A DNA stretch of 26,069 bases from Candidatus Margulisiibacteriota bacterium (GTDB taxonomy: Bacteria; Margulisbacteria; WOR-1; O2-12-FULL-45-9). The translations under genes were made by a program, and so were the position numbers. This document shows, in pieces, positions 7,404 to 10,487 of the stretch. The stretch's first letter is position 1. The number at the start of each line of letters is the position of its first letter. The stretch is from positions 1 to 26,069 of the forward strand of contig JBDRHP010000060.1 in NCBI GenBank assembly GCA_043816785.1. The letters are read 5' to 3'. The notes under the pieces were generated by a model. It was not told where the DNA came from. It did not search any database and saw only the letters and a list, made by a program, of their open reading frames with translations.

Positions 7404-7429
7404 TAACCTGCGGCTGAACGCCGCGGTTA
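7404..7429 (-). repeat. Bulged hairpin repeat, left type
   Basis: TAACC-T-GCGGC-TGAAC-GCCGC-GGTTA. Confidence 0.85.
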
Positions 7430-7464: not shown

Positions 7465-7511
7465 GAGTTGCGACGCCGCGCCTGCCAGCAGGCAGGGTTA
7501 GTCGCAGGCTC
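7465..7511 (+). repeat. Right-type hairpin interrupted by a 21-nt palindromic insert (7476-7496)
   Basis: GAGTT-GCGAC-G[CCGCGCCTGCCAGCAGGCAGG]GTTA-GTCGC-A-GGCTC. Confidence 0.8.
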
Positions 7512-7513
7512 CG

Positions 7514-7915
7514 GTGATGTTCATGTACTACCACTATATTTTCAGAACCTATAAGAAGAAATCTAGTCTGTTATTGCCTGAATTTAAGACAAAATTAGGC
7601 GGTGATTTTGTAAATATCGCTCAGGAAAAAGGCTTTAATCTCATTGCTCATGCGATTCTGGAGGATCATGTCCATATGTTGGTTAAACAGCTTGAGTCGG
7701 ACAAAACTGATTATGTCATGCGCATGTTTAAGGGTATATCTTCTCGAAGATTCTTTCAGGAATATCGATCGAATCCTTTTGAGCATTGTAAATTATAGGG
7801 GAGGGGCTATTATGCCCGTGTAATTACTGAAGAAGAGGTTCCAAAAGTGATAGAATATATAAAGAACCAGATTGGAGCCGATGGCTATGATAAAAGGCAT
7901 TCAACAATTAAATAA
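7514..7915 (+). pseudogene. tnpA: IS200/IS605-family Y1 tyrosine transposase with in-frame TAG at 7796-7798
   Basis: YHYIFRT, DHVHML (HUH) and FKGISSR motifs; the frame continues past TAG as KL*GRGYYARVITEEEVPKVIEYIKNQ... to TAA 7913-7915; TAG sits at the conserved Trp of LWxxxY. Confidence 0.88.
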
Positions 7916-7928
7916 TATTCAAAAGGAC

Positions 7929-7964
7929 AATTGGAACCGCGAGGTTTACTCGCAGGTTCCAATT
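7929..7964 (+). repeat. Bulged hairpin repeat, right type
   Basis: AATTGGAACC-GCGAG-GTTTA-CTCGC-A-GGTTCCAATT. Confidence 0.9.
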
Positions 7965-7976
7965 TGGTGAGTAATC

Positions 7977-10487
7977 ATGGCTGATCTGACCCCCATGGCA
8001 AAACAATATCTTTCCATCAAAGAAAAGCATCAGGATGCTATTCTCTTTTTCCGTTTGGGAGATTTCTACGAGATGTTCTATCAAGATGCTGAAGTCGCTT
8101 CAAAAGAGCTTGACCTGGTCCTGACTGGTCGGGGGAAAGATGACCACCGGATGCCGATGTGCGGCATTCCTTACCACGCTTCGCAAAATTATATTGCCCG
8201 TTTAATTGATAAAGGATACAAAGTAGCCATCTGCGAGCAGGTTGAGGACCTGCCTGCCGGCAGGCACGGCCCCAAAGAGGCTAAGGGAGTGGTGAAACGC
8301 GAAGTTGTCAGGATCGTTACCCCGGGAACGGTTATTGAAGCGCATCTTTTAGCAGAAAAAGCCAATAACTATTTGTTAGCCATTACCAGGGAGAAGAATA
8401 AATACGGCCTGGCATATGTTGATGCCTCAACCGGGGAGTTTAAGGTAACAGAGCTTGAAACCGAGGGAAAATTGTTGGATGAAGTTAACCGCATCAATCC
8501 TTCTGAGATTTTGCTGTCTGATATGATTCCGGAGGAACCGCGACGTTTAGTCGCAGGTTCCTCTACAGTTTCAGAATTTAAGGACACCTATGATTCTGAA
8601 GCTGCTGAAGAAAAACTTAAGCAATTTTTTAAAGTTAAGTCGCTTGATTCTTTCGGCCTAAACGCCGTGAAAACCAGCTGGGGAGCGGCAGCAGCTATCC
8701 TGGACTATCTTAAGGAAACGCAGAAGACCAGTTTGGACCAGATCAACCAGATCAAGCCCTATCAAACTTCTCATTTTATGTTTATTGACGCGGCCACCAG
8801 GCGCAATCTCGAGCTTGTCCAAACCATCAGAGACAAATCATACAAAGGCTGTTTGCTCTGGGTGCTGGACAGGACAAAGTCGTCGATGGGCGGACGTTTG
8901 CTGCGGCAATGGATACTGCAGCCGCTGCTTGACGCAGCACAGATCAATCAGCGTTTGGAGGCGGTTGAAGAGCTTTATAACAACGCGATACTGCGCGCTG
9001 AACTCGGGCAGGAGATCAACAATGTTTCGGATATTGAGCGGGTTGTTGGACGCATAGCTTCCGGCACTGCCAATGCCAGGGATTTGATCGCGCTTAAAGA
9101 TTCCTTGAGACTTTTGCCCAAACTTAAAAGCCTTATGTCTAAAGTCCAAAGTCAGCTGCTGCAGCAGCTGGGCCGGCTCCCAGATTTTACTGGGATTCTT
9201 GATCTGATAACCAGATCAGTTGTTGATGATCCGCCTTTTGCTTTAAAAGACGGCAACTTGATAAAACAAGGGTTTGAAGCTGAACTTGACCAGATCAAAG
9301 CCGCGGCTCGTGAAGGTAAGGCCTGGATCGCTCAGCTGGAGAATGAAGAAAGAAAACGCACCGGGATCAAATCGCTTAAAGTCGGTTTTACCAGGGTTTT
9401 TGGCTATTATATCGATATAACCAGATCAAACCTTTCTCAGGTGCCGGATAATTACATCAGAAAACAAACCTTAGTAAACAGTGAACGATTTATCACTCCC
9501 GAGCTCAAGGAAAAGGAATCACTGATCCTTAACGCAGATGAGCGCTTGAAGGAAATGGAGTACAAGGTTTTCTGCGATGTTCGCTCCAAAGTTGCTGAAC
9601 AAACTTCTGAACTGCAAAACCTGGCGTGGGTCCTGGCCCAAATTGATGTTTTGCTGTCTTTAGCTGAGGTCGCAGTTGAAAACCATTACAGCAGGCCAAA
9701 AATCCAAAAATCTAAATCCGGAATAAATATTATTGAATCAAGACATCCTGTAGTTGAAAAAGTGCTGGGAGAGCATCGGTTCGTTCCCAATAATGTTGAA
9801 ATGGATGAAGCAGCCGGGCGTTTCCTTTTGATCACCGGGCCTAACATGGCTGGAAAATCGACCTACATGCGTCAGGTGGCTCTTACTTGTTTGCTGGCCC
9901 AGATCGGATCTTTTGTCCCGGCAAAAGAAGCTGAGCTCTGCCTGGTTGACAGGATCTTTACCCGCATTGGCGCCATGGACGACATTTTCTCCGGCCAGTC
10001 AACTTTTATGATGGAAATGACCGAGACAGCCAATATCCTGAATAATGCAACTGACAAGAGCTTGATCATTCTTGATGAGATAGGGCGGGGGACTTCAACC
10101 TTTGATGGCATGTCGATCGCCGCGGCAGTGGCTGAATATATACATACTAAGATTGGAGCAAAGACTTTGTTTGCCACCCATTACCATGAGATCACCCAGT
10201 TAGTTGATAAGCATCCAGGCATGGAAAACCTGAATGTTCTGGTTAAGGAAGAGGGAGATCATGTAACTTTTCTGCACCAGATCGTTAAAGGGCCAGCGGA
10301 CCGGTCTTATGGGATCCAGGTGGGTAAACTTGCCGGTCTGCCTGCTGAAGTAATTAAAAGAGCCAAGGAGGTTTACTCAACTTTGGAAATGGTTGAAAGC
10401 GATCTGGGGAAAATTAAAAGCTCCAGGCCAAAGGCCAGAGGCCAAAAGGCCAAGGGTGCTGAACAGGAACAAGTTAGTTTATTTTAG
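7977..10487 (+). CDS. mutS: DNA mismatch repair protein MutS
   Basis: TPMAKQY, FRLGDFYEMF, TPGT, TGPNMAGKSTYMRQ, DEIGRGTST, FATHYHE, SYGIQV. Confidence 0.98.
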   Translation: MADLTPMAKQYLSIKEKHQDAILFFRLGDFYEMFYQDAEVASKELDLVLTGRGKDDHRMPMCGIPYHASQNYIARLIDKGYKVAICEQVEDLPAGRHGPKEAKGVVKREVVRIVTPGTVIEAHLLAEKANNYLLAITREKNKYGLAYVDASTGEFKVTELETEGKLLDEVNRINPSEILLSDMIPEEPRRLVAGSSTVSEFKDTYDSEAAEEKLKQFFKVKSLDSFGLNAVKTSWGAAAAILDYLKETQKTSLDQINQIKPYQTSHFMFIDAATRRNLELVQTIRDKSYKGCLLWVLDRTKSSMGGRLLRQWILQPLLDAAQINQRLEAVEELYNNAILRAELGQEINNVSDIERVVGRIASGTANARDLIALKDSLRLLPKLKSLMSKVQSQLLQQLGRLPDFTGILDLITRSVVDDPPFALKDGNLIKQGFEAELDQIKAAAREGKAWIAQLENEERKRTGIKSLKVGFTRVFGYYIDITRSNLSQVPDNYIRKQTLVNSERFITPELKEKESLILNADERLKEMEYKVFCDVRSKVAEQTSELQNLAWVLAQIDVLLSLAEVAVENHYSRPKIQKSKSGINIIESRHPVVEKVLGEHRFVPNNVEMDEAAGRFLLITGPNMAGKSTYMRQVALTCLLAQIGSFVPAKEAELCLVDRIFTRIGAMDDIFSGQSTFMMEMTETANILNNATDKSLIILDEIGRGTSTFDGMSIAAAVAEYIHTKIGAKTLFATHYHEITQLVDKHPGMENLNVLVKEEGDHVTFLHQIVKGPADRSYGIQVGKLAGLPAEVIKRAKEVYSTLEMVESDLGKIKSSRPKARGQKAKGAEQEQVSLF
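8249..8269. repeat. 21-nt palindromic mini-insertion in mutS (adds LPAGRHG)
   Basis: CCTGCCTGCCGGCAGGCACGG; removal restores EQVEDPKEAKG; reverse complement matches 7476-7496 at 19/21. Confidence 0.88.
8532..8563 (+). repeat. Right-type hairpin repeat in-frame within mutS (EEPRRLVAGSS)
   Basis: GAGGAACC-GCGAC-GTTTA-GTCGC-A-GGTTCCTC; 30 nt identical to 5355-5384. Confidence 0.92.

Follow-up and report, generated by a model that had tools for sequence, protein, structure and literature searches.

The Rickettsia palindromic elements (RPEs) of Ogata et al. 2000 are said to measure approximately 100 to 150 bp and to be confined to Rickettsia. The small dispersed repeats (SDRs) of the Nostocaceae, known from Elhai et al. 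2008, reportedly span approximately 20 to 30 nt, insert precisely and can nest in other repeats; they are also said to be restricted to their lineage, not to be perfect palindromes and to have no reported nuclease partner. In homing cassettes of the I-TevI type, a small GIY-YIG open reading frame (ORF) is lodged in a conserved host gene. Here, we analyze a stretch of 26,069 nt from a Candidatus Margulisiibacteriota bacterium (hereafter the window, contig C60 of the assembly; labels C, G and L stand for contigs of this genome, for genomes of its order, this one being G000, and for loci), in which the mismatch repair gene mutS contains a 21-nt variant of the perfect 20-nt palindrome CCTGCCTGCCGGCAGGCAGG. 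This segment arose by insertion: it is one copy of a hairpin element that is dispersed and shared horizontally. Like the RPEs, the element is a palindromic repeat that lies in frame in conserved protein genes and is translated as an extra surface segment, but at 20 to 21 nt it is much shorter, it is identical across phyla, and most of its copies are intergenic. It shares with the SDRs the very small size, the precision and the nesting, and differs from them in being a perfect palindrome that crosses phyla and is associated with a nuclease. That nuclease, a small GIY-YIG protein lodged in tRNA genes, resembles a homing cassette in that the arrangement preserves the host function by keeping an intact tRNA. 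It differs in that there is no intron, the 5' part of the tRNA is duplicated, the nuclease consists of the catalytic domain only (80 to 90 amino acids), and there is a dispersed satellite hairpin.

Two further systems come closer. According to the main text of Chenal et al. (2025, PMC11893778), Ssn proteins are single-domain GIY-YIG proteins (CDD cd10448) that bind the NTS/SRM hairpins flanking their own genes and cleave single-stranded DNA beside hairpins, homologues preferring their own hairpins. Measured against that text, the element described here has in common with Ssn/SRM a short GC-rich hairpin with tens of dispersed copies that is also found beside a small single-domain GIY-YIG gene, different hairpins for different nuclease clades, and a wide spread over phyla. 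The 20-mer differs in being a perfect palindrome without directional flanks of the GTCAT type; in addition, the nuclease here sits in a tRNA gene with a duplicated tRNA piece, and copies of the palindrome lie in frame within genes, while the terms "tRNA" and "in-frame" do not occur in the main text of PMC11893778. By analogy, the pairing of palindrome and nuclease may work like Ssn/SRM; membership in the Ssn family is not established. The second system comprises the repetitive extragenic palindromic (REP) elements and REPINs, with their REP-associated tyrosine transposases (RAYTs; Bertels & Rainey 2011, PMC3116915). REPs and REPINs are, like our palindrome, short non-autonomous hairpins with many copies per genome, and true REPs with a RAYT are present in the window itself. 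The palindrome differs from them in that it has no GTAG-type flank, forms no inverted doublets, is not the hairpin that flanks the RAYTs, and does not co-occur with Y1 transposase genes.

The insert in mutS and the palindrome family

The mutS gene (7977..10487, + strand) is the only long ORF at the site and encodes a protein of 836 amino acids with all five Pfam MutS domains. The 21-nt variant within it, CCTGCCTGCCGGCAGGCACGG (8249..8269, + strand), encodes LPAGRHG, residues 93–99 of the protein, and lies within domain I (Pfam MutS_I, residues 5–121). An earlier note, made from the letters of the window alone, had described this segment as a micro-element inserted precisely and in frame into the mismatch-binding domain without target duplication, and comparison with orthologues bears this out. 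mutS genes were found in 27 of 30 relatives, and in an alignment of 19 mutS genes fetched as loci from these relatives, exactly the 7 residues in question are missing in every one (CEQVED, gap, PK.AKG). E. coli MutS (1e3m) has the same 7-residue gap, between GD and PATSKG. Excising the 21 nt leaves GAG GAC CCC AAA, as the note had read it, with a junction ambiguity of only 1 nt (C); there is therefore no real target site duplication (TSD).

The insert was also found in public sequencing runs. A Logan contig from the probable source run (X1) crosses it without gaps over 463 nt and matches exactly, and one from a different study (X4) does so over 295 nt with 1 mismatch. Contigs of related organisms from the same samples run on as the empty site, ...GAC being directly followed by CCAAGAAGGCC.... 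Since independent contigs span the insert, it is no assembly artefact of this record. In the protein, the insert falls between the strands ...VAICEQVED and PKEAKGVVKREVVRIVTPGT, in a turn where all the orthologues and the E. coli protein of known structure have a gap, and the GDFYE motif that contacts the mismatch and the remaining MutS domains are intact. In addition, the allele bearing the insert is present in two studies. For these reasons, MutS with 7 additional residues is predicted to be functional, and the insert in this loop of domain I is probably tolerated.

The genome to which the window belongs (1.53 Mb in 106 contigs, 46.9% G+C, 86.75% complete) contains 39 copies of the palindrome, 28 of them exact 20-mers and 11 with 1 to 3 mismatches, which makes it by far the commonest among the GC-rich hairpin repeats of this genome. 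Further copies had been anticipated in the earlier note, which had pointed to one in the window at 7476–7496, on the opposite strand and identical to the mutS copy at 19 of 21 positions; this copy, with 2 mismatches, was confirmed, and 100 dinucleotide-preserving shuffles of the window gave 0 matches. Several of the other copies also turned out to be clean 7-amino acid inserts in genes. The single-stranded 20-mer forms a hairpin with a stem of 8 bp and a loop of 4 nt (-8 kcal/mol). It has no stop codon in any frame and, because it is palindromic, it can be read in only three ways, PACRQAG, LPAGRQ and CLPAGR. No pair of copies lies less than 200 nt apart in this genome, and no shared flank or target tetranucleotide was found beside the 39 copies or beside 124 others.

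The flanking sequence places at least 9 of the 39 copies shortly before start codons, and 3 copies replace the C-terminal tails of PheA, RnfE and NrdR. The copy on C16 occupies the loop of a terminator-like hairpin. Four copies are followed by GGTGAGG or, read on the other strand, preceded by it (C49:6717, C79:2661, C16:10624 and C85:8640); at C49 and C79 the start codon lies 4 to 5 codons past this Shine-Dalgarno-like motif, and an effect on translation start is possible. The copy at C55:2991 is surrounded by ttctga repeats, and in other phyla the palindrome is likewise found amid tandem or direct repeats of 6 to 9 nt, such as aattacg three times, tctaaaa twice, or ttcgtca on both sides (Bacteroidota and other records; L022, L029, L055, L065, L079, L102, L121). 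The ends of contigs C6 and C49, and likewise those of C67 and C95, share reverse-complementary overlaps located precisely at a copy. The palindrome thus breaks the assembly at these places, so the copy number is probably underestimated, with two copies counted twice.

To describe the distribution of the palindrome, we counted 20-mers with at most 1 mismatch in the 31 genomes of the order. Copies were found in 28 of the 31, with 0 to 35 copies per genome, and the reversed pattern, used as a control, was found in none. Sister genera differ widely, some having 35, 34, 31, 29 or 28 copies and others 0 to 1. In a set with one genome per prokaryotic species, at least 122 stretches contain the exact 20-mer. 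Going by record titles, the matches listed include Patescibacteria (many classes), Omnitrophota, Bacteroidota, Planctomycetota, Gamma- and Deltaproteobacteria, Bdellovibrionales, Thermodesulfovibrio and Chloroflexi, and the cultured Bacteroidota among them include Winogradskyella, Flagellimonas, Flavivirga and Longitalea. Viral contigs contain the 20-mer in 40 stretches. One 29.5-kb IMG/VR contig (L381–L383, L390, L391) has six exact 20-mers, and on another viral contig (L387) a 92-nt tRNA-Met called by ARAGORN spans a copy. A literature search for the 20-mer, its 14-mer core and the peptides LPAGRQ, PACRQAG and LPAGRH returned no description, approximately 1.7 million PubMed Central articles and subscription-only papers lying outside this search, and keyword searches brought up only papers on organelles and viruses. 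The element is real, unusual and, as far as the literature search reached, unpublished.

Unit length, in-frame copies and landing sites

The mutS copy equals the 20-mer plus one extra C (…GGCA-C-GG), without any substitution. The identical 21-mer is present in a gene for a metallo-beta-lactamase (MBL)-fold hydrolase and in dnaX, and diverged forms are found in ybeY and at 7476–7496 of the window. Sixteen of the 31 genomes of the order together contain 33 exact 21-mers; identity at 33 places suggests that the 21-mer was itself copied from existing copies. Open frames were taken from stop to stop and were verified as genes in this genome alone. Among 30 21-mer copies examined, 22 fall within such a frame of at least 200 amino acids with 20 or more residues on both sides, and all six possible readings are seen. 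The same rule, applied mechanically to the 34 20-mer-type copies of this genome, places 8 of them inside such frames. Coding copies of the exact 20-mer are accompanied by one base that repeats the flank, a G in RibF and EtfA and an A in GrpE. Twenty nt shift the reading frame; therefore, probably only frame-preserving versions persist in genes.

The length of the unit can be read from two non-coding pairs of filled and empty sites. In one, an orphan piece of a tRNA-Leu gene reads GGTAGA, 20-mer, CGCAAGG, and the adjacent intact tRNA provides the empty site. In the other, genome G011 reads GGCTGAA, 20-mer, CGCCGCGG at a hairpin whose counterpart in the window (7405–7428) is empty. Both insertions comprise exactly 20 nt and produced no TSD. 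It is thus likely, and in part demonstrated by these pairs, that the unit is 20 nt long and that the coding copies are a selected 21-nt subset. The proposal of the earlier note that the element is inherently a multiple of a codon does not hold, since the 21-nt form is either a derivative or a 20-mer plus 1 base.

We listed the ORFs around all 39 copies and checked those in long frames by Pfam and against the five closest relatives. In the MBL-fold hydrolase (C1), ApbE (C2) and YbeY (C12), 7 amino acids are missing as a clean gap in all five relatives. The same is seen in 4 of 4 relatives covering the site for an EtfA-like protein with a ferredoxin domain (C11), and in five of five for RibF (C49, duplicated on the overlapping contig C6), where the gap is split 5+2 in one relative. 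These five inserts all lie within Pfam domains. Together with mutS, in-frame inserts are thus validated in six genes, and all of them read LPAGR(Q/H), the commonest surviving reading, which forms a Pro/Gly-rich loop. Further in-frame inserts are probable in GrpE, in the DnaX linker and in a DUF4130 protein. The GrpE insert faces a clean gap in only 1 of five relatives, that of DnaX lies in a linker too variable for orthologue comparison, and for the DUF4130 protein a homologue was found in 1 of five relatives, ending before the site. In DnaX (C73:1886) and in its counterpart from the relative G013 (L299), the variable linker that follows domain III contains an identical 21-mer read in the same frame. 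It is missing from five closer relatives, so that either an ancient insert was lost several times or one hot spot received two insertions.

No consistent TSD fits all coding sites, whether read as 1, 2 or 3 nt; GGC flanks suit RibF and EtfA but not ApbE, GrpE, mutS or the MBL gene. Neither a common motif nor a hairpin was found at the coding sites. Across phyla, hairpins are among the targets. Perfect stems of at least 6 bp flank the palindrome in 15 of the 122 cross-phylum stretches, against 2.1 expected from re-paired flanks, and stems of at least 7 bp in 8, against 0.7 expected. In 11 of 16 listed stem cases (one from this genome), the palindrome abuts one strand of the stem, mostly with the old loop on the other side. 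The same loop/stem geometry is found in the tRNA D-arm, in both REPs beside RAYTs (in the window and in G011) and in the C16 terminator, and REP loops seem to be general landing sites. At C10:12574–15918 (L143), a REP located 3' of an intact RAYT contains a different, 42-nt loop insert (GCACCTCGACTTCGCTCGGTGC…) beside an uninterrupted copy of the same REP.

Y1 transposase genes and tRNA-lodged GIY-YIG nucleases

Two types of enzyme genes are found near copies of the palindrome. The first is represented in the window by an IS200/RAYT-like Y1 (HUH) gene (7514..7915, + strand; motif HVHMLV, Pfam Y1_Tnp), located between pheT and mutS. A Y1 gene is also found upstream of mutS in G011, G018, G010, G017, G016, G020 and G030, a synteny that fits vertical inheritance, as expected. 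In the window gene, an in-frame TAG at 7796–7798 replaces a Trp (KLWGRGY) of the intact paralogue on C10. Upstream of the RAYT, the REP hairpin AACCTGCGGC-TGAA-CGCCGCGGTT (7405..7428) is empty; its G011 counterpart has the exact 20-mer between TGAA and CGCC. On the 3' side of the RAYT lies the hairpin GGAACCGCGAG-GTTTA-CTCGCAGGTTCC (7933..7960), which is a REP type of its own. The diverged palindrome copy, annotated at 7475..7496, is located in a REP loop, between the stem strands GCGAC (7470–7474) and GTCGC (7501–7505). Its insertion point is GCGAC^GTTAGTCGC, and the uninterrupted REP used for comparison, GCGACGTTTAGTCGC, lies beside the paralogous RAYT on C10. Copy and host REP fold as nested hairpins. 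Being inside the REP loop, the copy is a guest in the REP and not the REP itself. In a contig of run X2, from another study, position 7428 is joined to 7933 through 33 other letters, without the RAYT; the match is weak, with 24 letters on its shorter side.

The five Y1_Tnp genes of the genome (that of the window and four others) are each flanked by their own, different hairpins. Three have GTAG plus a hairpin, and the window gene and its C10 paralogue have GGAAxCxGCGAx-GTTTA-xTCGCxGGxTCC. Within the order, Y1_Tnp was not found in G023 (24 palindrome copies, 90% complete), G026 (29 copies, 84% complete) or G015 (13 copies), and G004 has 8 Y1 matches with 0 copies. Among 30 Y1 loci drawn from 40 genomes of other phyla with the 20-mer, one has a copy (with 2 mismatches) within 200 nt and three have one within 1.5 kb, one of these owed to a neighboring GIY-YIG cassette. 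No tetra- or pentanucleotide target was found 5' of the insertions, the left flanks being GAGGA, CTTTT, CAAGG, TTTGG, GAAGG, AATGG, GTAGA and CTGAA. The flanks of the five Y1 genes, the census of the 31-genome order and the 30 cross-phylum loci speak against the RAYT as the cognate enzyme, and it was rejected as the main explanation. The earlier note had favored an HUH-type mechanism, and Y1 genes that have REP hairpins of their own and do not follow the copy number of the palindrome speak against it. That reading correctly saw a precise micro-element that keeps the frame; it errs on the native length and probably on the enzyme.

The second type is the small GIY-YIG nuclease, of which this genome has six genes besides uvrC. 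Those on C24, C55, C105 and C2 are located at tRNAs recognized by ARAGORN, and a tRNA-like sequence precedes the one on C77. At C24, C55 and C2, the cassette consists of an orphan copy of the tRNA 5' part, an ORF of 80 to 99 amino acids and the intact tRNA, in this order; the C105 gene lies between two intact tRNA-Leu genes. The tRNAs at the C24, C55, C105, C2 and C77 loci (L195, L197–L200) are Leu-taa, Glu, Leu-caa/cag and Gln, and at C55 the last codons of the ORF overlap the tRNA start. At C24, 67 nt separate the ORF from the 20-mer, which lies upstream of it in the orphan tRNA-Leu piece; at C55, the 20-mer is 81 nt upstream of the ORF.

To place these genes, we fetched 78 small GIY-YIG genes of the 31 genomes and computed a maximum likelihood tree (89 columns, with a few listed places unfetched and many forks unresolved). 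In a clade formed by genes of G000, G011, G017 and G006 (support 97/91), the 20-mer lies within 150 nt in 4 of 4 cases, at the same position in the tRNA-Leu D-loop. Over the whole tree, 6 of the 78 genes have it within 150 nt, two of them on other branches. Sister nucleases have other GC-rich hairpins at the same tRNA sites, CCCGCC-N3-GGCGGG and GCCTGCC-GTA-GGCAGGC. Hairpins of the orphan tRNA pieces (L200, L244, L198, L259, L247) occupy fixed positions and are sometimes nested. TTTA-CCCGCC-N3-GGCGGG, CCTACC-GATA-GGTAGG and GCCTGCC-GTA-GGCAGGC have 5, 1 and 1 copies in this genome, respectively, and are thus unexpanded.

A cross-phylum set was assembled from the best match to the C24-type protein in 30 of the 40 genomes with the 20-mer. 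At ten of these 30 loci, the 20-mer is no more than 200 nt away, in most cases 20 to 43 nt upstream of the start. The upstream 20-mers lie inside orphan tRNA pieces (Leu, Gly, Lys, Gln), at positions that vary within the D-arm region, and an intact tRNA follows the ORF at 8 of the 11 cross-phylum loci inspected. Because the tRNAs and the positions differ, these loci are independent instances of one architecture and not one inherited event. The association of the palindrome with tRNA-lodged GIY-YIG nucleases is thus observed in the order and across phyla, and a functional tie between the two is likely. The C24-type nuclease matches only GIY-YIG in Pfam, and NCBIfam gives nothing above cut-off for the small nucleases. 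It shares 35% identity over 66 amino acids with an NTS-flanked, Ssn-like protein of the same genome (C33) that falls in the other half of the tree. That 99-amino acid GIY-YIG protein (C33:2682–3603, L196) has NTS-like repeats downstream (…GTCATCCCCGCGAAAGCGGGGATCCAG…) and three GTCATTCCCGCCCCTGCTTTCGCAGGGATAAAC… upstream, and its locus looks like a second, separate pair of nuclease and hairpin.

Proposed mechanism and alternative explanations

The best explanation overall, of which we are about half persuaded, is that the palindrome is an ultra-short non-autonomous hairpin and the companion of a clade of tRNA-lodged GIY-YIG nucleases of approximately 80 amino acids. To make a new copy, the whole unit would be inserted precisely and the target left unduplicated, and insertion would favor the loop/stem junctions of existing hairpins such as tRNA D-arms, REPs and terminators. 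In genes, the survivors would be either the self-copied 21-nt variant with its extra C or a 20-mer with a duplicated flanking base. The palindrome in the orphan tRNA 5' piece, 20 to 80 nt upstream of the nuclease ORF, would be the companion hairpin. The nuclease may recognize or cut single-stranded hairpin DNA, as Ssn nucleases do with SRM hairpins; new copies would then be planted when such cuts are repaired or when hairpin DNA that has been released is ligated, and horizontal movement of the cassette would carry the identical palindrome between phyla. That the GIY-YIG nuclease itself generates the new copies, through cuts in hairpin or single-stranded DNA that are then repaired or ligated, is a tentative proposal drawn from this analogy, and we lean slightly toward doubting it. 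The insertion chemistry is its weakest part, because GIY-YIG enzymes are hydrolases with no known strand-transfer or joining activity; further steps would be needed.

Several observations weigh against this explanation. Within the order, 72 of the 78 small GIY-YIG genes have no copy within 150 nt, and most copies are solo. In G024 (31 copies) and G023 (24 copies), which are 85% to 90% complete, no palindrome was found within 150 nt of the GIY-YIG loci fetched. The 4-of-4 result in the clade might go back to a single old insertion passed on together with the cassette, a possibility countered by the cross-phylum cases at different tRNAs. Likewise, 39 of the 40 viral stretches have no GIY-YIG within 600 nt; viral contigs, with such a gene in only 1 of 40, were therefore rejected as carriers of the cassette. 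The SRM motif HGTCWY...RNCYNB, as printed in the main text of the Ssn paper, overlaps none of the 39 copies and matches the genome 13 times, compared with 7 to 12 times in shuffles. In this genome alone, perfect stems of at least 6 bp are not significantly enriched (1 observed, 1.1 expected), and the verification of open frames as genes is likewise limited to this genome. Finally, a search for indel polymorphism at the mutS insert gave no rows in public runs, whose contig form drops rare alleles. In its strongest form, which we regard as doubtful, the explanation would make the palindrome the smallest known mobile DNA, free of flanks, which a tRNA-parasitic mini GIY-YIG nuclease copies or pastes as single strands into hairpin junctions and genes. 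The two would form a selfish two-part system that crosses phyla, possibly via phages, and whose 21-nt form keeps adding LPAGRQ-type loops to essential proteins, including one of mismatch repair.

The unexpanded hairpins that sister nucleases have in the same tRNA sites also fit a different account, in which there is no dedicated enzyme. Host replication and repair, by template switching or microhomology copying at stalled forks or loops, would spread the hairpin, and at the GIY-YIG genes it would be an operator, a terminator or an immunity insert. Copies nested at the loop/stem junctions of other hairpins suit this account, and the extra flank-matching base of coding copies (G in RibF and EtfA, A in GrpE) resembles imprecise repair. 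However, identity of all 20 bases across phyla and swings from 0 to 35 copies are hard to obtain without a sequence-specific agent, and other hairpins of equal stability stayed at low copy number in this genome; we therefore consider it unlikely. These copy swings, here among related genomes of similar size, also count against the idea that selection favored the palindrome for a function, for example in protein binding, as a terminator or as a translational regulator, and that it was gained repeatedly and left coding copies as by-products. Such a site would account for the at least 9 of 39 copies upstream of starts, several of them directly before GGTGAGG, and for the 3 copies that replace C-terminal tails at gene ends. 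The clean inserts in conserved domains of six genes make no obvious regulatory sense, and a function would not account for the appearance of an identical 20-mer at new sites, which leaves this idea improbable.

Insertion without TSD and a hairpin substrate fit single-strand transposition of the IS200/IS605 type, and the palindrome might accordingly be a minimal REP moved by a Y1 HUH transposase, RAYT- or IS200-like, such as the neighbor of mutS. In favor of this, both non-coding filled/empty pairs are TSD-less, a RAYT-like gene flanked by a palindrome copy on its 5' side is found 60 nt upstream of mutS, G011 has a copy at the syntenic RAYT, and the genome has 5 Y1_Tnp genes. Yet all five have different hairpins of their own, the two copies near RAYTs are insertions into REP loops, and the window RAYT is interrupted by a TAG. 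Moreover, G023, G026 and G015 have copies and no Y1_Tnp was found in them, G004 shows the opposite, a copy lies within 200 nt at 1 of 30 Y1 loci against 10 of 30 GIY-YIG loci, and no flank or target tetranucleotide is conserved. We thus regard this as very improbable. Several copies at contig ends, and the overlaps that meet at a copy (C6/C49, C67/C95), might raise the suspicion of an artefact of sequencing or assembly such as an adapter or a chimeric hairpin. Such an artefact is hardly conceivable given that independent assemblies of two studies span the mutS copy, that all coding copies keep the reading frame, that copies carry point substitutions, and that the palindrome is found in isolates and metagenome-assembled genomes of many studies.

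If the explanation by a nuclease-associated hairpin is true, a mobile unit consisting of a mere 20-nt hairpin keeps an identical sequence across bacterial phyla, and the pairing of GIY-YIG single-strand nucleases with hairpins would extend to a tRNA-lodged arrangement. A nuclease with a defined 20-nt hairpin partner would also be a candidate tool for single-stranded DNA. Annotators would gain a source for the recurrent LPAGRQ, PACRQAG and CLPAGR peptides and for contig breaks in uncultivated bacteria. For the proteins themselves, the inserts would form a natural record of loops that tolerate 7 additional amino acids, in domain I of MutS, a ferredoxin domain, RibF, YbeY, ApbE and an MBL hydrolase.

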